A stretch of DNA of 64,000 nucleotides from a virus. A model generated the notes under the pieces. That model had not been told where the DNA came from and ran no database searches. It saw nothing but the letters and a program-made list of their open reading frames with translations. The position numbers were made by a program, and so were the translations under genes. Every line of letters begins with the position of its first letter. Within the stretch, counting starts at the first letter, position 1. The stretch is taken from the IMG/VR virus record IMGVR_UViG_3300025018_000143, positions 1-64,000 of that record. One strand, 5' to 3'. Shown here piece after piece: positions 4,693 through 60,067 of this stretch.

Positions 4693-5190
4693 ATGAGTAT
4701 TGAAGCAAAAGAAGAATACAAATTAATTTATTCAAGATTGTATGATTTATGTGAGGAAAATGGCTGGGGCGACCCATTCTCATATGCAAGAAGCAGAGAA
4801 ATCCTTATAGCCAGCTATCTAGGTCATGAAATATCCAACACACTGGCGGGTGATGATGGATATGACGAAGAGGGTGCTTGTGAATATAAATCAACAATTT
4901 GTGAAAATATCCATGGATTATATTCAGGCATGTCAAAGCAATCCACTTGGGAAAAACAGAAAGAATATCTAGTAAATGAAAAAATACTTCCTTATAAAAA
5001 TCATTATTTTATTAGATTTGAAGTAGGGAAAATTAAGGAAGTATGGAAATTATCAGGAGAAGATGTGTATACAATTCTCCTTCCTAAAGTAAAGAAGAAT
5101 TATTTTTCTTCTGGATCAAGAAAAGATCCTAGAGTAAGAGGCGAGATAACAAAAAAGGAAATATATGACTACGGGAAAAGAATTCTTTAG
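4693..5190 (+). CDS. PvuII-like PD-(D/E)XK restriction-type endonuclease
   Basis: GDDGYDEEGACEYKS resembles the PvuII catalytic segment GNDAVD..GQEYELKS; similar length and C-terminus (KDPR...IYDYGKRIL). Confidence 0.6.
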   Translation: MSIEAKEEYKLIYSRLYDLCEENGWGDPFSYARSREILIASYLGHEISNTLAGDDGYDEEGACEYKSTICENIHGLYSGMSKQSTWEKQKEYLVNEKILPYKNHYFIRFEVGKIKEVWKLSGEDVYTILLPKVKKNYFSSGSRKDPRVRGEITKKEIYDYGKRIL

Positions 5191-15377: not shown

Positions 15378-15451
15378 TGGGATATAGTTCAATGGTAGAG
15401 CGGATGACTTTGAATCATCAAGTTCCAGTTCGAACCTGGATATCCCTTCCA
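15378..15451 (+). tRNA. trnQ: tRNA-Gln(UUG) with encoded CCA
   Basis: TGGGATA..GTTC-AATGGTA-GAGC..GATGA-CTTTGAA-TCATC..TCCAG-TTCGAAC-CTGGA-TATCCCT-T-CCA cloverleaf. Confidence 0.93.
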
Positions 15452-17242: not shown

Positions 17243-17650
17243 ATGTTTAACAATAATGAACAACTACAATTTATAATATCTGCTGTGATGATGTCTATAG
17301 TTGGAGGCATCGCCAACTGGCTCATGGCAGATAAGCACAGTGTATTCCAATTCATTGTTGCAGTATTTCTAGCTGGGTTCGCAGGATTCCTGGTAGGGCA
17401 ACTATGCCTCGAGGCCAAAATCTCTGAGGCAGTTTCTTTCTTCCTTTGCGGCTCAGCTGGATTATGTGCTGAAATGATCCTCAAAATTTCCAAGAAGGCA
17501 ATGCTTTCTAAATTTAGCTTAATGACTGACCAGAAGCTGGATGAAGAATTGGACATGATTGAAAAAGAATATGCCAAAAGAAAATCCCTACATGTATCAA
17601 CAGAAGATGAAAAAGAGTCAAATAATCTAAAAAATTTCCTTAACAAATAA
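17243..17650 (+). CDS. Holin (LydA-like, three TM helices)
   Basis: SIVGGIANWL..., FLAGFAGFLVG, FLCGSAGLCAE pattern; charged C-tail; upstream of a cell-wall hydrolase. Confidence 0.75.
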   Translation: MFNNNEQLQFIISAVMMSIVGGIANWLMADKHSVFQFIVAVFLAGFAGFLVGQLCLEAKISEAVSFFLCGSAGLCAEMILKISKKAMLSKFSLMTDQKLDEELDMIEKEYAKRKSLHVSTEDEKESNNLKNFLNK

Positions 17651-18916: not shown

Positions 18917-19579
18917 TTTATTTTTGCAATTGTCGAAGTGCCATCTTTTCATAGGAGCAATTTTGCCTTCTTTTCCGCAATAAACACATACAACATTGGA
19001 TTTTGATAATGATGTTTCTCTCATTTTTTGTTTAGTTGATGAGGAATGAATTCTATTCTTTCCTGCAATAGAAAGATTTTTTTTATGTTCTGGTGATATT
19101 ATTCTTCCTTTATGGGCTGCACTGATTTTTCTTTTGGTTGCTTCGGTTCTAGTTTTACCTTTCAAAGCTTTGCTTATTTGTTTCTTTTGCCATTCGGATA
19201 TTATCATGCCTTTATTAGCTTTGCTTATTTTGTCTCTAGTTTCTTGAGAAATTATTCTACTTTTATTAGCGACAGCAATTAATTTTTTAATTTTTTCATA
19301 GCTTCTACTGTTAATTTTATAATCACGGTACTGATTTTTAGATTTTCTATGTATCATACACCAAAATGCATAATTAATTTTATGATTACTATGCATTTTG
19401 GACAATAACCAATGGCATATAAAATGTTCTCTGGCTTCCAATTCCACTATATTATATTTTGAATTATTCCCTCCCAAACAACTAGGTATTATGTGATGTC
19501 TTTCTTTATAAATATTTTGAAGTAAACATCGATTATTTGCCTTATTTATGATGGATTGATATATTTTAGAATAATTCAT
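18866..19579 (-). mobile_element. Free-standing HNH/NUMOD3 homing endonuclease
   Basis: ERHHIIP..LGG.N...N.VEL.AREHF.CHWLL; repeated SxET..KIS.A.KG (NUMOD3); C-terminal C..CGK...RWHFDNC. Confidence 0.9.
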
Positions 19580-27766: not shown

Positions 27767-28525
27767 ATGTCAAGAATTGATCTTTTATTAACACAAAGCC
27801 CAAATAGAGTACCTAAACGTCTGGGTGATATAGGTGCACTAGCACCATACGTGCATTTTCTCTGTGCTGAAGAGAGTGCCATATTACCAATGCCCACAAA
27901 TGTCACATCAGGAAATCAAATATTATGGGAACAAAAAGACTTTACTCCTGATTCCATAGGTGGAGCTGCTGCTATTTCTGCTTATAAAAAATCTGGTGAA
28001 ACAGGAGCACTAGAGGCACTAGGTTCTGGAGGAGCTGGAGTTATAGCAGGGAGAGCAAAAGATGCTGCATCCAGCGTTGGTTCTAGCGTATTAGGAGCTT
28101 CGGATCTTGGTGATTATGTTCTGCACAAACAAAATAAGGCAGTAAATCCTAATAAAGAAATGACATTCAATGGTATTGGATATAGATCATTTCAATTTGA
28201 ATTTGAACTAATACCTCTGAATCAAAAAGAGGCAGCTGCAATTAAACAATTCATTGAATTCTTCCAGACACAAGCAATGCCAGATTTCGCGGGTGAAGGA
28301 AGCACTTACTTTGCCTACCCTTCAGCATGGGATATAAAATTCGGAAATGCTGAATGGCTACCGAAAATTCTTCCTGCTTATTTAACTGATTATAGTGTGA
28401 ATTACGGAGGAGTAGGAAAGATGGTTGCTCATAAAGACAGCGCAGTTCAAACCAATATACAATTGACCTTTACTGAATCACAACTCCATACAAAAGCAAA
28501 AGTAAAAGAAGGCTATGTAGGATAG
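27767..28525 (+). CDS. gp48: Baseplate tail tube cap
   Basis: NPNKEMTFNGIGYRSFQFEFELIP.N..EA..I..F; synteny. Confidence 0.8.
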   Translation: MSRIDLLLTQSPNRVPKRLGDIGALAPYVHFLCAEESAILPMPTNVTSGNQILWEQKDFTPDSIGGAAAISAYKKSGETGALEALGSGGAGVIAGRAKDAASSVGSSVLGASDLGDYVLHKQNKAVNPNKEMTFNGIGYRSFQFEFELIPLNQKEAAAIKQFIEFFQTQAMPDFAGEGSTYFAYPSAWDIKFGNAEWLPKILPAYLTDYSVNYGGVGKMVAHKDSAVQTNIQLTFTESQLHTKAKVKEGYVG

Positions 28526-52465: not shown

Positions 52466-53086
52466 ATGACTATAAGTCAATATTTTCGACATATAACAGC
52501 TTCTAATGAACAGAAACTAGTTAATGATCTTACCATCGAATGCATACAGATGAAAGGTCTTAATATGAAATATGTTCCTAGAGATTCAACAAATTTAGAC
52601 AATCTATTTGGAGAAGATAATCAAAGCACATTTACTGCTGCTGTTGAATTAGAAATGTATTTCAATGAGATGACTGGATTTGGTGGAGAGTCCGATATAT
52701 TCTCTAGGTTTGGTCTAAACATTAATGATGAAGGAACATTCATCATTTCTTACTCAAGGTTTAAGGATGTTGTTACTGCCGCCTATCCTTTAATCAATAG
52801 ACCAAGAGAAGGTGATTTGATCTACTTTGATTTACCGACCTCTGTATTTGAGATTGCATGGGTAGAAGATGAAAAACCATTTTATCAAAATGGTATATTA
52901 ACTATCTGGACATGCCATTGTAAGAAATTTGAATACAATCATGATATCATGGAATCAGGTGTTGATAATGTGGATGATATTGTTCTTGATCCTGTAAGAA
53001 CAGCTGATAATGATGATATTCAAACAGAAAGTGATACTTTTGTTAATTTTGATGAAAATGATCCATTCAGCGATAACTCTTATTAA
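52466..53086 (+). CDS. gp14: Neck protein
   Basis: EQ.L...L..E.I...G, RPREGDLIYF, FDENDPF. Confidence 0.93.
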   Translation: MTISQYFRHITASNEQKLVNDLTIECIQMKGLNMKYVPRDSTNLDNLFGEDNQSTFTAAVELEMYFNEMTGFGGESDIFSRFGLNINDEGTFIISYSRFKDVVTAAYPLINRPREGDLIYFDLPTSVFEIAWVEDEKPFYQNGILTIWTCHCKKFEYNHDIMESGVDNVDDIVLDPVRTADNDDIQTESDTFVNFDENDPFSDNSY

Positions 53087-53094
53087 GGAACAAT

Positions 53095-53874
53095 ATGGCA
53101 ATTACAGATTTTTATTCTCATGGGACAATAAGGCGATGTGTAACAGCATTCGCCACATTGTTTAATGGGTATAAAGTAAGAAAAACAGACGGAACTTTGG
53201 TTATGGTTCCGTTGAGATGGTCATCAAAGCAAAAATGGCATACAAAATATCAAGAGGATAATACCGGAGCTCCAAATACTTTTGTGTCGATTACATGGCC
53301 TAGAATGGGATTCACTATAGCCAATATATCATATAATTTTGAGAGAAAGGTTTCTAGTTTAAATAAAATTTCTGCTGCAAATACTTTAGATGCAGGGAGT
53401 ATGCTTAGAACTTATTCAGCGGCTCCATATACAATCGATTTTGATTTGTTTATTGGTACAAGGACTATTGATGAAGGGTTACAATTGATTGAGCAGATCA
53501 TTCCTTTCTTTACACCATCGTTTAATATTACGATTTCAGAGCTTGATACTCTAGGATTGGAACGTGATGTGCCTATACGATTAAACAGTGTACAACCTAA
53601 TCTTGATATAGAAGGTATGTTTGATGGTGATGATGTAAAATTATGGGATTTGAGCTTCTCAATGGAAGTCAACCTATATAAGAATATTAAGAGTGAAAAA
53701 ATAATCAAGAAGATAATAGTTGATACTTATCCTTCCACTGATGTGACAGAAGAAACTATTAAATTTAGAACAAAATATACTGTTGATCCAGAGACAGCAT
53801 TTATAACTGATGAGTATTCCATATTAGAAGAAATTGGATATGTGTCATATGATACACCAAAATTACCAGCTTAG
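53095..53874 (+). CDS. gp15: Tail sheath stabilizer/terminator
   Basis: FY.H.TIRR....F.TLFN, PRMGF, QLIEQIIPFFTP. Confidence 0.92.
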   Translation: MAITDFYSHGTIRRCVTAFATLFNGYKVRKTDGTLVMVPLRWSSKQKWHTKYQEDNTGAPNTFVSITWPRMGFTIANISYNFERKVSSLNKISAANTLDAGSMLRTYSAAPYTIDFDLFIGTRTIDEGLQLIEQIIPFFTPSFNITISELDTLGLERDVPIRLNSVQPNLDIEGMFDGDDVKLWDLSFSMEVNLYKNIKSEKIIKKIIVDTYPSTDVTEETIKFRTKYTVDPETAFITDEYSILEEIGYVSYDTPKLPA

Positions 53875-53887
53875 AATGTGATAATAT

Positions 53888-53933
53888 AAAAAGGAAAGAG
53901 GAGACAAAAAATCTCCTCTTTCCTTTTGGTTTT
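53888..53933. terminator. Bidirectional terminator after gp15
   Basis: AAAAGGAAAGAGGAGA...TCTCCTCTTTCCTTTT perfect stem with A/T tails. Confidence 0.8.
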
Positions 53934-53945
53934 ATGAGAAGGATC

Positions 53946-54255
53946 TAATGCGAGGACTCTGAAGGAGTCCTCCAGGTTCGGAGAACCTGCACTCTCAGCC
54001 TTCTAAATGTATTAAGAACAAAGCCATAAGGAAATCCTCTTCATGTTTCTATACATGAAGAGGATAATTATGCCTAAGTACTTTTAATCTGACCATGTAC
54101 TTAATGTATTATAATAACATAAAAATCATATTTAATTTATTTTTATGCTGTTATAATACATTAAATTCTTAATGTGTATTAAGATGTCTTAATGCTTCAT
54201 TCACTCCGTGAATGATGTTCATGATTATGCTCCGCATAATCATTCACGCATTTAA
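53946..54255. other. Hairpin/palindrome cluster, candidate replication origin
   Basis: Four triloop hairpins, a 13-bp perfect stem at 54034-54065 and an AT-rich imperfect palindrome at ~54101-54165; no ORF. Confidence 0.45.
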
Positions 54256-54349
54256 TTTTTTATTCTTTATATTAAATTCTTCATTATTATTTACTCAGCC
54301 ATGGTTTACCCTTTAGCTTGATTTAATTGTTTATAGTAGAGATGAAATC

Positions 54350-54995
54350 TAAAAAAAGAGGTTATTTTCAGCTATATTTTTTTAGCAAAACACAGCGAGA
54401 ATCCCTTTGTAGTGTTTAAGTGACACAATACTTTATATTCTCTTCTTTTTTTATTGCCCGTCAGACTGGTCAATTAGTTTCCTAATTGCATCAAGCGTTC
54501 CATTTCCGGAACAAACCAGCTCGATCGGTGGCATCGGAGGTTGAAGCGACCTGTTTCAATGTGTTACAATTTCAGAACACATATCAGCTGTACCACCATC
54601 TCTACATCAACTTAGGCTTTCTACATTCATGGAACTGTACTTTTTGTATTTCTACGTTTTTCTAATCCAGATGAATGGAGCGGTTAGAATCTACAGCAAG
54701 AGGACTAGCATCTGGGAAGTCAGTATCCACCCATCTGGGCTTAGTTATCTCCAAATCCTCGGAACATATTTGATGCTAGTCATTATCTGTATAAAGCAGT
54801 CTTATTCAAAATATAATTCTAAATCACTCCGCAAGTCACTAAAGTTTTCGTCTGGTCATTACTTGTTAAGATAAATATTACCATATGCTTTTTTCAGATA
54901 TTTATCCAAGCACCAGAGAGAATAACAATTTCAGGCATTCTGTTACCAAATGCTTCCCCTTACTTTTGTTATCCTGACTACATCTTTTCAATCTA
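54350..54995 (-). ncRNA. Candidate large structured non-coding RNA
   Basis: No credible ORF; nested helices; GAAA and GTAA tetraloops on the minus strand; TATAAATA at 55002-55009 (-). Confidence 0.55.
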
Positions 54996-55020
54996 CATAT
55001 CTATTTATACAACTCAAAAA

Positions 55021-55257
55021 TTACTTCTTTGTTCTGCTTGCCCTGATATTTGGATTTTCCAAATATTTGTTTAAACAAGGGTCACATATTTCAACATGAG
55101 TAATATTAAATCTTTTTGTTCCTTCAAGACCAAGAAAAAATACTCTGGCGTACATGCCTTCATACATTTTCCCACATTCACAGCATTTTTTATACCCTAA
55201 CTTTCTTAATGCTTTTTGTGCTTTGCTTTGTTTTCCAGCATTTCTCGATTGGTTCAT
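55021..55257 (-). CDS. Small Zn-finger protein
   Basis: CCECGK...ICDPC. Confidence 0.65.
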   Translation of the reverse strand: MNQSRNAGKQSKAQKALRKLGYKKCCECGKMYEGMYARVFFLGLEGTKRFNITHVEICDPCLNKYLENPNIRASRTKK

Positions 55258-55274
55258 ATTACCTTCAATATTAA

Positions 55275-55580
55275 TTATTTTCTGCCTGTAAATTTACACA
55301 TTTGATTTTCTTCTGTCCATTTAGGACTGATTTCGATAATTTCATCAGGCTTTGACCAATCAATAATTGAATCCAATTGGTTTTTGATTGAAGCTGATAA
55401 ATTCTGAGCTTCAATTTTACCTAATTCAGCATAAGGTCCATATTTCTTATCAAAAGGAGCCTCACCTTTCAATTGAAATTGAACACTAGGCCTCTTCCAA
55501 ATCTTTACTTCCCTTGATATAATCATATTTATCTCATTAATTTTTGCATTCCTGAAAAGTCCAATCATAGAAATCATCAA
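55275..55580 (-). CDS. Hypothetical protein
   Basis: Co-oriented ORF in the minus-strand early operon. Confidence 0.55.
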   Translation of the reverse strand: MMISMIGLFRNAKINEINMIISREVKIWKRPSVQFQLKGEAPFDKKYGPYAELGKIEAQNLSASIKNQLDSIIDWSKPDEIIEISPKWTEENQMCKFTGRK

Positions 55581-55770
55581 TTGAACACACTTTCCTTACT
55601 GGAATTCTCTCAAATCTGTAAACAGAACAAAGAACTTTATCCAAGCCTAACTCTCTGACTGCTTTCTCTACTCGACTTAAGTCATTCATTTCTGGCACAT
55701 GCATACCACAACAGAAACCAATGATCTTCCAATTTCTGTTTTCATCTTCATAAATGTCAACTGATATCAT
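55537..55770 (-). CDS. Hypothetical protein
   Basis: GAGGAG RBS downstream of early promoters. Confidence 0.65.
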   Translation of the reverse strand: MISVDIYEDENRNWKIIGFCCGMHVPEMNDLSRVEKAVRELGLDKVLCSVYRFERIPVRKVCSIDDFYDWTFQECKN

Positions 55771-55794: not shown

Positions 55795-55922
55795 GTACTC
55801 TCATTTTCTTATAGTATATTATAACATCTAATATATCCTTTGTCAAGTATTTTTTAATTTATTTTTTCTTTTTTCTTCATTCTTTATATAGAGATTATAA
55901 CATTAAAAATTCCTGGTGTCAA
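55795..55922 (-). promoter_or_regulatory. Two tandem early promoter cassettes
   Basis: Minus-strand TTGACA(55922)-17-TATAAT and TTGACA(55846)-17-TATAAT with the same downstream core. Confidence 0.85.
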
Positions 55923-55950: not shown

Positions 55951-55958
55951 TATAAATA
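55951..55958 (+). promoter_or_regulatory. Late promoter for the terminase genes
   Basis: TATAAATA about 30 nt upstream of gp16; a reverse copy lies at 55968-55975. Confidence 0.75.
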
Positions 55959-55989: not shown

Positions 55990-56376
55990 ATGGAAAACCA
56001 AGAATTGTTAATACCTGAATCAATAGGGATGGATGTTGCTAAATATAATGACATCGATCAAGATGCCTTTGATGATATTGAAGAGGTACGACAAAATTAC
56101 AAAACACTTTTAGAAAAGGGTAATGATGCCCTGGACACAGCAGCTTCAATTATTGAATCATCCGAGCATCCACGTGCTATTGAAGTTTTTTCTGGTTTGA
56201 TATCAAATCTTGCTAATGTGAACAAGCAATTAATCGAACTTCACAAATCCAAAAAAGAGCTTCGTGAAGCCAGAAAAATGAATGATGACCAAAGCAACGG
56301 GAATAACATTCAAAACAACATGTTCATTGGGTCTCCAAAAGATTTGCTTGATATGCTAATGGCTAATAATGGATAA
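55990..56376 (+). CDS. gp16: Terminase small subunit
   Basis: SEHPRAIEV, NNMFIGS..DLL; upstream of gp17. Confidence 0.9.
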   Translation: MENQELLIPESIGMDVAKYNDIDQDAFDDIEEVRQNYKTLLEKGNDALDTAASIIESSEHPRAIEVFSGLISNLANVNKQLIELHKSKKELREARKMNDDQSNGNNIQNNMFIGSPKDLLDMLMANNG

Positions 56377-58063
56377 TGAAGAAAAACAAGCCCATGATAA
56401 TCAGCAAGAATTATCGGAGATAGGCTACAGAGGGAATAAGAATTTAAGAAAATCCGGGCTTACCCAGAAGTGGACAAAGAGACAATTAATTGAATGGAAA
56501 AAATGTCATGATGATCCAATATATTTTATTAAAAAATACGTAAAAATTGTTCATATTGATCATGGTATTGTGCCTTTTGAGTTATGGGATTTTCAAGAAA
56601 AATTAATAAATGATCTACATAATAATAGATTTGTTGTGGGATGTTGGAGCCGCCAATCTGGGAAGTCTTCAACCATTGCAGCTTATATGCTTCATTATGT
56701 ATTGTTCAATTCTAATAAAACCTGTGCTATACTTGCGAATAAAGCAGCAGGTGCCAGAGAGATACTTGGAAGAATTCAGATGGCTTACGAATTATTGCCA
56801 TTCTGGATGAAAATGGGCGTAGAAGATTGGAACAAAGGTAATTTCAATCTTGAAAATGGATCAAGTATTATTGCTTCAGCTACGTCCAGTTCAGCTATAC
56901 GTGGTTTGTCAATATCATTTCTTCTACTGGATGAGTTTGCTTTCGTACCAAAAAACATAGCTGAGGATTTCTTTAGGTCAGTATATCCTACAATTTCATC
57001 TGGTAAAGAATCTAAAATAGCTGTTATTAGTACACCATATGGCATGAATCATTTTTACAAATTATGGAATGAAGCATTAACAGGCGTTAATGGGTATGTA
57101 TCTAACAGAGCATATTGGCATCAGGTTCCTGGTAGAGATGATGTATGGAAAGCAGAGACAATTAGAAATATTGGGTTAGAGGCATTTGATCAGGAATTTG
57201 CAATTGAATTCCTAGGATCCTCAGGGACTCTTATTTCTTCTGCTAAACTATCAGCAATGTCCTATAGGACACCTATATTACAAAATGATGATGGATTCAA
57301 GATGTATTATGCTCCTAAACCAGACCATGCTTATATCATGACTGTTGATACTGCTGAAGGCTTAGGATTAGATAGCCATGCTATTAGTGTGTTTGATGTT
57401 ACTGAAAAGCCATACCAACAAGTAGCAGTGTATAAGAATGCTTTTCTCGAACCATTATTACTTCCTGATATTTGTTTGAGTATTGCAATAAAATATAATG
57501 AGGCTTTTATAATGGTTGAATTGAATCACTTAGGCCCTCAAGTAGCGAATACATTATATCAGGATCTTGAGTATGAAAATATGATGTTTACAACTATAGG
57601 AGGCAGAAGTGGCCAAGTACTTGGTGGTGGCTTCGCCGGCAAAGCTCAAATTGGTGTTAAATCAACTACTCAATCAAAGAGAGTATCCTGCTCATTAACA
57701 AAAACATTAATTGAAAACGATCAATTAATAATAAATGACTTTGACACATATTCCGAATTTACTACATTTGCTAGAAATAAAAATTCATATGAGGCAGAGG
57801 AAGGAGCTAATGATGACCTTGTAACCACTGTTAGATTGTTTGCATGGATAACAGGTCAGAAATATTTTAAGGAGGATTTAGAGCGAGATTTGAGGGATAA
57901 TCTAAACCGACAATCAATTAATAGAATGGAAGAATTATTAGTTCCATTCGGCATAATTGATAATGGTATAGAAGCTGATGACATTCACACAAGAGCAGAA
58001 CAGCATAAATATCAGGTTGATTATACAACCAGATATAGTGATATGTCTAATTTCAATGAATGA
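56369..58063 (+). CDS. gp17: Terminase large subunit
   Basis: SRQSGKS Walker A, LLDEFAF Walker B, STPYG.NHFY, DTAEG, DDLV. Confidence 0.96.
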   Translation: MDNEEKQAHDNQQELSEIGYRGNKNLRKSGLTQKWTKRQLIEWKKCHDDPIYFIKKYVKIVHIDHGIVPFELWDFQEKLINDLHNNRFVVGCWSRQSGKSSTIAAYMLHYVLFNSNKTCAILANKAAGAREILGRIQMAYELLPFWMKMGVEDWNKGNFNLENGSSIIASATSSSAIRGLSISFLLLDEFAFVPKNIAEDFFRSVYPTISSGKESKIAVISTPYGMNHFYKLWNEALTGVNGYVSNRAYWHQVPGRDDVWKAETIRNIGLEAFDQEFAIEFLGSSGTLISSAKLSAMSYRTPILQNDDGFKMYYAPKPDHAYIMTVDTAEGLGLDSHAISVFDVTEKPYQQVAVYKNAFLEPLLLPDICLSIAIKYNEAFIMVELNHLGPQVANTLYQDLEYENMMFTTIGGRSGQVLGGGFAGKAQIGVKSTTQSKRVSCSLTKTLIENDQLIINDFDTYSEFTTFARNKNSYEAEEGANDDLVTTVRLFAWITGQKYFKEDLERDLRDNLNRQSINRMEELLVPFGIIDNGIEADDIHTRAEQHKYQVDYTTRYSDMSNFNE

Positions 58064-58144: not shown

Positions 58145-60067
58145 ATGGGAATGTCTTTCCAGCTTAGTCCAGGTGTAGTAACCAGAGAATTTGATCTTAC
58201 AACTATGGTGCCTCAGGTAGCAACATCTTCTGCTGCATACGTAGGTTCTTTTCAGTGGGGACCATTAGATCAAATCAAGACTATTTCATCTGAAGAAATT
58301 CTTAACAATGTATTTGGTACACCTAATGATGATACCTTTTTGCATTATTTTTCAGTAAAGAATTTTTTAGATTATTCAAATAATATTAAAGTTATTCGTG
58401 TAGCTGAAGCTACTGCATTAAATTCAACTGTTGATGGCACAGGAATTGTTGTCAAAAATGATGCTGATTGGGTGGATAATCATTCTGCTGGCGTTAATGG
58501 TATTGGTGAGTTTGCTGGAAGATATCCAGGTATTATCGGTAATAATATAAAAATAGAAATGGCTGATGCTCATTCATATAGCTCTGTTGTTTCTATTACA
58601 ATTACTGACCCTGGTTCTGGATATACCACTGTTGCTGATGATGGGGTTGCTGTTATAATTGCTGACCCTGTATCAGGAACAACAGCTACCGGCACAATGA
58701 TTGTTGCTGGCGATGTTCTTACTGGCGTATTACTAACAGAGACAGGAACAGGCTATAAATCAGCACCTGCAATAACATTCCCAGTACCAGTTGGTGGTGG
58801 CGTTGCTGCAACAGGTACAACCAGTCTTTGGGCATATCGTGGTCAATTTCTTTCTCCTCCTGGTACCTCTGAATTTGTGGCTAATAAAGGCGGTACAAAT
58901 GATGAGCTTCATATTATAGTAATTGATGCCACTGGCGCAATTACTGGCGATGTAGGTACTATTCTTGAGAGATATCCTTTCTTGTCTAAAGCTAAGGATG
59001 CAAAAAATGATGATGGTACTAATGCTTACTATGTTGATACTATCAGGGATTCTTCCAATTATATTCACTGGATGGATCATCCTATAATTGGCACTAATTG
59101 GGGTGAAAATTCAGCTGGTACTAATTTTGCATTAACCGAAGAAATTTATTCTGTAACTCTTTCTGGCGGTGTTGATGGCAATGTTGTATCTAATGATGAA
59201 TTGATATTAGGCTGGGCTATGTTCTTGAATGCTGAAGAAGTTGATGTAAGCATTCTCATTGCTGGCCCTGCTGATGCGACTCTTGCTCAATATTTAATCC
59301 AGAATATAGCAGAAACAAGAATGGATTGTGTTGCAGTTATTTCTCCTCTATTTGTTGCTGCTGTAAGAAATGCTGGTAGTGAAATGGATGATATCATTAA
59401 TATGAGAGATACAATGACTTCTAGTTCATATGGTATCTTTGATTGTAACTGGAAATATCAATTTGATTCTTATAATAATACTTTTAGATGGCTCCCTTGT
59501 AATCCAGATGTTGCTGGTTTAATGGCAAGGACTGACCATACTAATGATCCTTGGTGGAGCCCTGCAGGATTTAATCGAGGTCAAATTAAGAATGTTGTCA
59601 AATTAGCATGGAATCCTTCTAAAACTGAAAGGGATGAGTTGTATCAAAAAGGAATCAATCCTATTGTAGTAATTTCTGGCGAAGGCACTATTCTTTATGG
59701 CGATAAGACAATGCTCGCCAAGCCTTCTGCTTTTGATAGAATCAATGTAAGACGATTGTTTATTGTTCTTGAAAAGGCGATTGCTAAAGCGGCTAAGTAT
59801 TCCTTATTCGAGTTTAATGATGCATTCACAAGAGCAAGATTTGTACAGATGGTTGAACCTTATCTTCGTGATGTACAAGGACGAAGAGGTATTACTGATT
59901 TCAAAGTTGTGTGTGATACGACAAATAATACTGGTTATGTTATTGATTCTAATGCATTTGTTGGGGATATATACATCCAACCAGCAAGAAGTATCAATTT
60001 CATTACATTGAATTTCATTGCCACTCCCACTGGAGTGGACTTTGAAGAGGTTATTGGAACTTTCTAA
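58145..60067 (+). CDS. gp18: Tail sheath protein
   Basis: SPGV..REFDLT, FQWGP, PWWSPAGFNRG, FDRINVRRLF, PARSINFITLNF. Confidence 0.97.
   Translation: MGMSFQLSPGVVTREFDLTTMVPQVATSSAAYVGSFQWGPLDQIKTISSEEILNNVFGTPNDDTFLHYFSVKNFLDYSNNIKVIRVAEATALNSTVDGTGIVVKNDADWVDNHSAGVNGIGEFAGRYPGIIGNNIKIEMADAHSYSSVVSITITDPGSGYTTVADDGVAVIIADPVSGTTATGTMIVAGDVLTGVLLTETGTGYKSAPAITFPVPVGGGVAATGTTSLWAYRGQFLSPPGTSEFVANKGGTNDELHIIVIDATGAITGDVGTILERYPFLSKAKDAKNDDGTNAYYVDTIRDSSNYIHWMDHPIIGTNWGENSAGTNFALTEEIYSVTLSGGVDGNVVSNDELILGWAMFLNAEEVDVSILIAGPADATLAQYLIQNIAETRMDCVAVISPLFVAAVRNAGSEMDDIINMRDTMTSSSYGIFDCNWKYQFDSYNNTFRWLPCNPDVAGLMARTDHTNDPWWSPAGFNRGQIKNVVKLAWNPSKTERDELYQKGINPIVVISGEGTILYGDKTMLAKPSAFDRINVRRLFIVLEKAIAKAAKYSLFEFNDAFTRARFVQMVEPYLRDVQGRRGITDFKVVCDTTNNTGYVIDSNAFVGDIYIQPARSINFITLNFIATPTGVDFEEVIGTF

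Follow-up and report, generated by a model that had tools for sequence, protein, structure and literature searches.

The gene for the tail sheath stabiliser gp15 and that for the small terminase gp16 are separated, in the phage genome studied here, by a 2.1-kilobase (kb) insert that has no counterpart in most T4-like relatives. The DNA analysed, referred to below as the window, covers positions 1-64,000 of an IMG/VR virus record with a length of 73.6 kb (IMGVR_UViG_3300025018_000143). Within the insert, a stretch free of open reading frames (ORFs) at 53875-55020 adjoins three small genes on the minus strand (55021-55770), which encode 78, 101 and 77 amino acids (aa). An initial annotation of this DNA had proposed that the ORF-free stretch holds a large, multi-helix non-coding RNA under a late promoter. 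Here, we describe the coding capacity, conservation, folding and transcription signals of this stretch. It probably contains a lineage-specific and strongly constrained non-coding element of about 600 nucleotides (nt), located at 54355-54956 and with a core at 54392-54803.

The source of the window is an uncultured T4-like myovirus. Its nearest cultured relatives, as judged by the large terminase, are about 50% identical and comprise the Methylophilales phage Melnitz, cyanophages and one pelagiphage. The stretch is contained in nine metagenome runs, which derive from aquifer and wastewater. The plus-strand genes that surround the insert were assigned with Pfam. On the gp15 side there are a T4 neck protein (52466-53086) and gp15 itself (53095-53874), which is complete and covers Pfam positions 2-228 of 245. 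On the other side, with a distance of about 1 kb from the element to the terminase genes downstream, there are gp16 (55990-56376), the large terminase (56369-58063) and the sheath protein (58145-60067). A gp15-gp16 spacer of a few hundred bases is typical of T4-like loci, as can be seen in the related locus L080, where 4672 is the last position of the gp15 match and gp16 begins at 4980.

Results

Coding capacity of the stretch

The gap at 53875-55020 is the largest ORF-free gap of the window, and it is wider than the segment 54350-55009 marked in the initial annotation. Its part 53875-54628 is the longest piece of the window without an ORF of at least 60 aa, with 754 nt compared with 286 nt for the runner-up. 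Between 54300 and 55020, all six frames are interrupted by 7-21 stop codons each, and all three kinds of stop codon occur. The stretch has one ORF of at least 60 aa, an 81-aa plus-strand frame (54629-54874) with two hydrophobic stretches, which is part of a plus frame that runs for 109 codons from stop to stop (54545-54874). The small ORFs of the stretch matched no family in Pfam or PHROGs. The eight ORFs of 30-59 aa are all absent from the recorded called proteins, and a search of 5.8 billion protein clusters gave no relative of the 81-aa frame. The 109-aa frame gave one match among 1.84 billion representatives, with an E-value of 5.9e-4. This match was judged to be spurious, as the protein consists of tandem repeats and was aligned seven times at 33% identity. 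The initial annotation had seen no credible ORF in this stretch, and the mixed stops in six frames, together with the lack of any protein family or homologue in these searches, bear this out. The same searches revealed no family and no credible homologue that would point to a decayed protein gene.

In one plus frame, TAG is the sole type of stop over 130 codons (54424-54813, five copies), and this segment coincides with the conserved core. We take this to be chance, because there is no suppressor tRNA and the translation is not protein-like. Stop-codon recoding was also considered and rejected. The sole tRNA of the window is an ordinary tRNA-Gln(UUG), found with ARAGORN and Rfam at 15378-15451, which is no suppressor and lies 39 kb from the element; moreover, mixed stops are found in all frames. 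Code 11 gives a good reading of the remainder of the genome.

Sequence conservation

The contigs of four metagenome runs were placed on positions 53500-55400, and a related phage was found in one of them, the wastewater run X2. In its gp15 contig (53655-53868), 24 of 214 sites differ from the window and there are two 1-nt insertions or deletions, while in the contig of the 101-aa gene (55243-55400) 21 of 158 sites differ. The two coding contigs in the flanks thus have 45 differences in 372 sites, or about 12%. Flank differences are enriched at third codon positions (16/30, p = 0.019).

A 602-nt contig of X2 spans the element (54355-54956) with 11 differences, nine of which are listed, namely 54385 G>A, 54391 C>T, 54566 A>G and changes at 54804, 54806, 54807, 54809, 54823 and 54843. 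The element can be divided into several segments according to these differences. The core, which consists of 412 nt (54392-54803), has one listed difference, at the hairpin-loop base 54566, and at most three if the unlisted ones are counted. About 50 differences would be expected in the core at the rate of the coding flanks, and the contrast with these flanks has a Fisher p of 1.6e-14. The core is followed by a linker (54804-54843) in which 6 of 40 sites differ (15%; Fisher p = 2e-6 compared with the core). Beyond the linker there is a second conserved block of 113 nt (54844-54956) with no listed difference and at most two unlisted ones. The core is also richer in GC than its surroundings; its GC content of 40.3% corresponds to the 95th percentile of 400-nt windows, compared with a mean of 34.5% for the window and 30% for 54804-54850.

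Another X2 contig is about 10% divergent within the 78-aa gene, where five of the eight listed differences are at third codon positions. In its non-coding part of 61 bases (54960-55020), this contig differs from the window by a single substitution and a deletion of 4 nt. The same divergent lineage therefore carries the element. Within the 81-aa frame, one of six X2 changes is at a third codon position and the first 58 codons are unchanged. This pattern indicates selection at the level of the nucleotides and not on a protein. The change 54391 C>T converts a G-U pair into an A-U pair in a minus-strand hairpin or, if the plus strand is considered, C-A into U-A.

The X2 contig of the element has a depth of 5.1 and those of the flanks have depths of 2.3-4.2, and no X2 contig covers 53884-54331. 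In runs X5-X7, the element is identical to that of the window, whose own sequence these runs contain, and they hence add no comparison. In the one relative that can be compared, the constraint on the sequence of the element is far stronger than that on the adjacent coding DNA.

Searches for RNA families and homologues

Comparison with the covariance models of Rfam, which had been suggested in the initial annotation, revealed no known family in the element. With Rfam 15 at the gathering threshold, the only match in the whole window is the tRNA, at 15378-15448. When E-values of up to 10 were allowed, the element gave mir-2944 (16.8 bits versus 56) and psRNA6 (11.7 bits versus 60), neither of which is meaningful, and it reached none of the models for ROOL, GOLLD, OLE, raiA and HEARO. 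ARAGORN and Rfam detected no transfer-messenger RNA (tmRNA) and no tRNA-like structure in the element. A group I or group II intron was rejected, as there is no Rfam match, gp15 is complete and the 78-aa gene is closed by its own stop codon, its frame closing again 10 codons further. The earlier judgement that the stretch is neither a tmRNA nor a group II intron is thus in line with the lack of matches in ARAGORN and Rfam and with the lack of an interrupted host gene. An RNA at this locus of T4-like phages was found neither in Rfam nor in a limited literature search, in which all matches concerned staphylococcal phages.

No homologue of the ORF-free stretch 53875-55020 was found in GenBank phages with blastn in its distant mode, and none of 54355-54956 was found in plasmids with blastn. 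With nhmmer, 54355-54956 had no match at E-values of up to 10 in 290 related loci (1.9 Mb). The IMG/VR records were scanned for exact 20-mers and 18-mers of the element and, furthermore, for peptide patterns of the 109-aa plus frame and of the neighbouring 78-aa protein, and none of these scans gave a homologue of the element. BLAST against five whole related records reached a best E-value of 0.058, over 17 nt. The record sets searched may leave out records very near the window. Since no homologue was found outside the near lineage, the element is young or narrow in distribution.

Scans based on gp15 in IMG/VR, JGI metagenomes and GTDB genomes gave relatives of at most 65% identity, and the locus of the 65% relative is cut at the spacer, with contig L162 stopping 87 nt past gp15. 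Contig L212, from the same metagenome, begins inside the 101-aa gene. Five gp15 homologues (P0002, P0003, P0006, P0010 and P0013), with identities of 45-65%, are encoded on contigs of 22-72 kb. Contigs L162 and L212 look like parts of one relative (65% identity in gp15, 66% in gp16, 79% in the large terminase and 64% in the 77-aa gene), and an assembly break over the spacer from gp15 to the 101-aa gene would fit palindromes or strain variation. A more distant clade (L163, L164 and L167, 45% gp15 identity) has a gp15-gp16 insert of 3.4-3.8 kb that also includes small minus-strand genes. Its ORF-free part of 1.5-1.8 kb (L163:5008-6478, L164:5436-6906 and L167:5922-7710) has no Rfam match. We rejected this gap as an analogue, as its sequence is unrelated to the element and is less conserved than the flanks when L163 is compared with L167.

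Predicted folding

The helices read from the sequence in the initial annotation are all present. In the core, GACTAGCATC (54703-54712) can pair with GATGCTAGTC (54772-54781) and ATGTGTT (54559-54565) with AACACAT (54576-54582), and CAATTAG-TTTC-CTAATTG (54471-54488) forms a hairpin that has a GAAA loop on the minus strand. The second conserved block includes the helix of TCTGGT (54851-54856) with ACCAGA (54912-54917) and that of GATAAATAT (54870-54878) with ATATTTATC (54898-54906). Local domains enclosed by a stem can be drawn in the element, for example at 54445-54515 and 54703-54781.

An exceptional nested fold, as had been proposed, is not seen when folding energies are compared with those of controls. 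For 54350-55009, the minus strand has a minimum free energy (MFE) z-score of -1.58, with 3 of 20 shuffles as good, and the plus strand has one of -2.66 (0/20). For the element itself, at 54355-54956, 100 dinucleotide shuffles gave z-scores of -1.70 on the plus strand (4/100 as good) and -1.75 on the minus strand (8/100), and for the core the values are -1.22 and -1.09, with 13 and 14 of 100 shuffles as good. Fourteen 120-nt windows of the element have a mean z of -0.33/-0.47, compared with -0.48/-0.35 (standard deviation 1.17/1.14) for 109 windows of the same size in the surrounding, mostly coding DNA. The helices are thus at the level of chance, both against shuffles and in local windows. The initial annotation had itself stated that folding no better than that of dinucleotide-shuffled controls would count against its proposal, and this is the result obtained here.

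As for the X2 differences, eight of the nine listed ones affect a base that is unpaired in the minus-strand MFE structure or has a low pairing probability, and the ninth, at 54391, improves a pair. A closing helix or terminal inverted repeat formed by 54361-54380 and 54808-54827 was considered and rejected, as the two segments are 75% complementary and the X2 changes at 54809 and 54823 break the pairing. A hammerhead-like CUGA...GAAA arrangement, noticed by eye near 54545-54590, was likewise rejected, because the conserved G of CUGAUGA is absent and there is no Rfam match. The complementarity of the element to the remainder of the window is at the level of chance, the longest match being 14 nt (E-value 0.12).

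Promoters, terminators and strand

On the minus strand, the motif TATAAATA is found at 55009-55002, 12 nt past the stop codon of the 78-aa gene, which agrees with the late-promoter motif reported in the initial annotation. It is a T4-type late-promoter motif and would form the 5' boundary of a putative minus-strand unit, with TATAAATA in the -10 position upstream of it, as in T4-type late units. Further copies precede several starts of late genes, among them one at 55951, 31 nt before gp16. The others are located 36 nt before an ORF at 27767, 38 nt before a minus-strand ORF that ends at 19579 and 63 nt before an ORF at 17243.

Read from this motif, the second conserved block (54844-54956) would make the 5' part of the putative RNA, followed by the variable, AT-rich linker (54804-54843), the GC-richer core (54392-54803) and the 3' flank of the core (54351-54391). 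This flank has a hairpin at 54368-54393 and a U run at 54358-54351. The U run had been pointed out before and is present as a minus-strand T run at 54351-54358; together with the hairpin, it is not a canonical terminator. No terminator-like hairpin was found at the U run, nor anywhere on the minus strand between 55818 and 54065. Two terminator-like hairpins that could act on minus-strand transcripts are located 290-460 nt past the conserved block. The hairpin at 54034-54065 is a perfect one of 13 bp with a T-rich tail, and that at 53889-53927, after gp15, is bidirectional, has 16-17 bp and would finally stop any read-through on the minus strand.

Further upstream, the minus strand has two perfect promoters of the sigma-70 type (55922-55894 and 55846-55818), each of the form TTGACA-17-TATAAT with an extended TG and 12 of 12 matching positions. 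They are predicted to drive the three small minus-strand genes. The minus strand of the element is rich in purines, as are the coding strands of the genome, and its GC skew has the same sign as that of the adjacent minus-strand genes. The initial annotation had pointed to purine-rich linkers on this strand.

The hexamer TGTAGA occurs four times on the minus strand within 54606-54997 (5' bases at 54997, 54695, 54625 and 54606), compared with 0.11 copies expected from the rest of the window. The longer ATGTAGA is found three times (0.03 expected), and the four copies read AUGUAG, that is, a start followed by a stop. The excess of TGTAGA is borderline after correction for the multiple testing of k-mers, and the copy at 54997 is altered in X2, at 54993. 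As a weak suggestion from the sequence, the hexamer could be a binding motif. The 4-nt deletion in X2 corresponds to 54998-55001, directly downstream of TATAAATA on the minus strand, and it shortens the distance from the motif to the first TGTAGA.

Neighbouring features

The remainder of the ORF-free gap has a different character from the element. Segment 53930-54320 consists of strong hairpins and an AT-rich palindrome, and it may or may not belong with the element. The MFE z-scores of 53875-54350 are -11.4/-10.8, and 120-nt windows in this zone have z-scores of -3.2 to -7.7. The AT-rich palindrome has arms of 26 nt (54101-54126 and 54139-54164), and paired triloop hairpins are found at 54197-54243. 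The truly structured DNA of the locus is this neighbouring zone, not the element. Two 40-nt AT-rich pieces, 54097-54141 and 54254-54295, recur with 2-8 differences in otherwise unlike X5-X7 contigs of 0.2-2.7 kb, one of which has such a piece in both orientations. These recurrences could be chance matches of low complexity or a short shared repeat.

On the opposite side of the element, the 78-aa gene (55021-55257, minus strand) ends just before it and is given here as context. It is recorded as a called gene on two contigs. The protein has basic ends and a zinc-ribbon-like CxxC...CxxC pattern, and no Pfam or PHROGs family was matched. The protein is encoded directly upstream of the element and might conceivably bind to it.

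Discussion

The element has no gene, matches no known RNA family, lies downstream of a late-promoter motif and is highly constrained, and it therefore behaves like a functional non-coding element. We tentatively favour, as the likeliest of several readings but one that is possible rather than probable, a minus-strand gene for a lineage-specific non-coding RNA. The lack of genes, the conservation in one relative, the rise in GC and the promoter and terminator motifs are observed. That the stretch is transcribed, from which strand and between which ends, and that it functions as an RNA, is inferred. Transcription of the minus strand would be expected because of read-through from the early operon and because TATAAATA stands just past the stop codon of the 78-aa gene. 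Late in infection, transcription would begin a few bases past this motif, near 54995. A second route would be read-through from the early operon promoters that start at 55922 and 55846, which would be expected given that no terminator-like site occurs between 55818 and 54065. The transcript would end at one of the two hairpins (54065-54034 or 53927-53889), resulting in an RNA of about 0.6-1.1 kb. The core is almost entirely constrained without any excess of folding, which favours contacts with a partner over a self-contained fold. Such an RNA may therefore work through sequence-specific contacts, by binding a protein or by pairing with another nucleic acid, rather than through a compact and ornate fold of its own. 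As regards the proposal of a novel large non-coding RNA under a late promoter, the absence of a gene and of a known family, the promoter motif and the constraint speak for it, while its exceptional fold is not supported.

Several observations weigh against an RNA gene. The conservation is seen in one pairwise comparison of short metagenome contigs with depths of 2-5, in which two of the 11 X2 differences are unlisted, and we infer that the contigs of the flanks and of the element are linked in one genome. The element has no homologue in the related loci, GenBank phages, plasmids or the IMG/VR pattern scans, and no Rfam family matches it. Its folding energy is the same as that of dinucleotide shuffles and of coding DNA. 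Moreover, TATAAATA is not enriched in the window, with 18 sites compared with 12.7 +/- 3.7 expected, and 18 sites are reached in 11 of 100 shuffles.

Part of this evidence would also agree with a neutral mosaic, in which the conserved DNA is a tract of recent recombination or transfer, or in which contigs of two strains were compared, and the element is a remnant of intergenic DNA in a hyperplastic region. The spacer between gp15 and gp16 is such a region. In most T4-like loci, gp16 follows gp15 closely, and the clade of L163, L164 and L167 carries a different insert with ORF-free DNA less conserved than its flanks. The low depth of the contigs, the chance-level fold and the lack of a homologue beyond the near lineage are consistent with such a history as well. 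However, both boundaries of the conserved tract are inside ORF-free DNA and coincide with the rise in GC. The conserved DNA is divided into two blocks by a linker that looks neutral, so that a single recombination tract is no easy explanation. In addition, the contig that is divergent in the 78-aa gene turns conserved on leaving the gene, and the greater depth of the element contig fits a sequence common to the strains present. We consider a neutral mosaic to be unlikely, although it has to be taken seriously. Hidden or decayed coding, be it a gene with recoded stops, a frameshifted gene or a small membrane protein made from the 81-aa frame, is far less probable still. The 109-codon plus frame, with the two hydrophobic stretches of its ORF, and the frame with TAG stops alone could be cited for it. 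Nevertheless, the protein searches gave neither a family nor a homologue, no suppressor tRNA is present and the genome otherwise fits code 11. Furthermore, five of the six X2 changes in the 81-aa frame are at codon positions 1 and 2, its 58 unchanged codons lack even a synonymous change, and the conserved DNA extends to 237 nt upstream of the start of this ORF.

A function at the level of DNA, such as a replication origin, a packaging-related site or an array of protein-binding sites that would act with the adjacent palindromes, would account for the lack of surplus RNA folding. The element adjoins an extremely palindromic, AT-rich zone (z of -11), the terminase genes are about 1 kb downstream, and the four TGTAGA copies could be seen as binding sites. 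We nevertheless regard such a site as improbable, as 412 nearly unchanged nucleotides far exceed the usual binding sites and one of the TGTAGA copies is altered in X2. There is also no excess of DnaA boxes, as the element has three matches with one mismatch and the window has 198 where 221 would be expected, and no iterons or tandem repeats apart from the hexamer were found. T4-type origins consist of a middle promoter and an unwinding element. A long specific site is not known to be required for T4-type packaging. The version of the initial annotation, that is, an ornate and intricately folded RNA like ROOL or GOLLD, overlaps with the RNA gene that we favour. It would fit the comparable size, the phage locus, the rise in GC, the conservation and the late-promoter motif, and it has domains that can be drawn. 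It is doubtful in view of MFE z-scores of -1.1 to -1.75, of local z-scores like those of coding DNA, of the absence of any Rfam match even at E-values of up to 10 and of a position that is not near tRNA genes. The proposed likeness to ROOL and GOLLD as structured RNAs is accordingly not sustained, with the fold at chance level, no Rfam match and the sole tRNA 39 kb away. It is also quite unlikely, but conceivable, that the element represents a new class of large RNA, 0.6-1 kb long and including a core of about 0.4 kb, which a T4-like phage of bacteria in groundwater and wastewater would make late in infection. Nearly all of its nucleotides would then be constrained because the RNA forms a higher-order assembly, either alone or with protein. 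In this it would be like ROOL and GOLLD, but it would be unrelated to them in sequence and architecture and would not be located near tRNA genes.

The informative signal at this locus is the conservation profile against a related metagenomic strain, while helices found by eye are at the level of chance. The roles of the long non-coding RNAs of large phages, including ROOL, GOLLD and those of phage K, are almost wholly unknown. Should the element be an RNA gene, it would be an example of such an RNA from the T4 lineage, placed clearly in the context of a late promoter. Its extreme constraint without a stable predicted fold would be an unusual signature and would suggest a function that depends on a partner. 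Should it be a recombination tract, it would be an ordinary piece of a hyperplastic region.

Non-coding RNAs have been known from T4-type phages before. The stable RNAs C and D of T4, of about 120-140 nt, are encoded in the tRNA cluster, are processed together with the tRNAs and have no assigned function. The putative RNA described here would share with them the T4-type host phage and the lack of an assigned function, but the element is far from a tRNA gene. CfrI, from the T4-like cyanophage S-PM2, is an RNA of about 225 nt that is antisense to a gene. Both CfrI and the putative RNA would be non-coding RNAs of environmental T4-like phages. In contrast to CfrI, the element has no coding sequence on its opposite strand, and its length is two to four times that of CfrI.

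Among larger RNAs, ROOL and GOLLD often, although not always, lie beside tRNA genes in phages and prophages, and the expression of GOLLD rises during lysis, according to a report on these RNAs (PMC12286853). As described there, they resemble the element in that they occur in phages, measure several hundred nucleotides, have no known function and lack a gene for a protein partner, and the rise of GOLLD at lysis would parallel the putative late promoter. They differ from it in their complex conserved fold with pseudoknots, of which the folding energies of the element give no sign, in their frequent tRNA neighbourhood and in their own Rfam models, which the element does not match. The element is not a member of ROOL or GOLLD. 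A study of phage K describes two RNAs, lnc001 and lnc002, of 635 and 1154 nt, which are read from the minus strand, have their own promoter, are of unknown function, were seen as abundant transcripts by RNA sequencing and adjoin tRNA genes (PMC9241854). On that description, the phage K RNAs differ from the element in having been seen as transcripts and in lying beside tRNAs, whereas the element is known from sequence alone and is 39 kb from the tRNA. The same description gives several points of likeness: both are long, gene-free intergenic stretches in a large lytic phage, without an Rfam family, not on the strand of the adjacent structural genes but on the other one, and with a promoter of their own, which is putative in the case of the element. 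The two phages are unrelated, and this likeness, drawn from descriptions, is one of kind only. By this analogy, the element would be closest in kind to the long intergenic RNAs of large lytic phages such as phage K.

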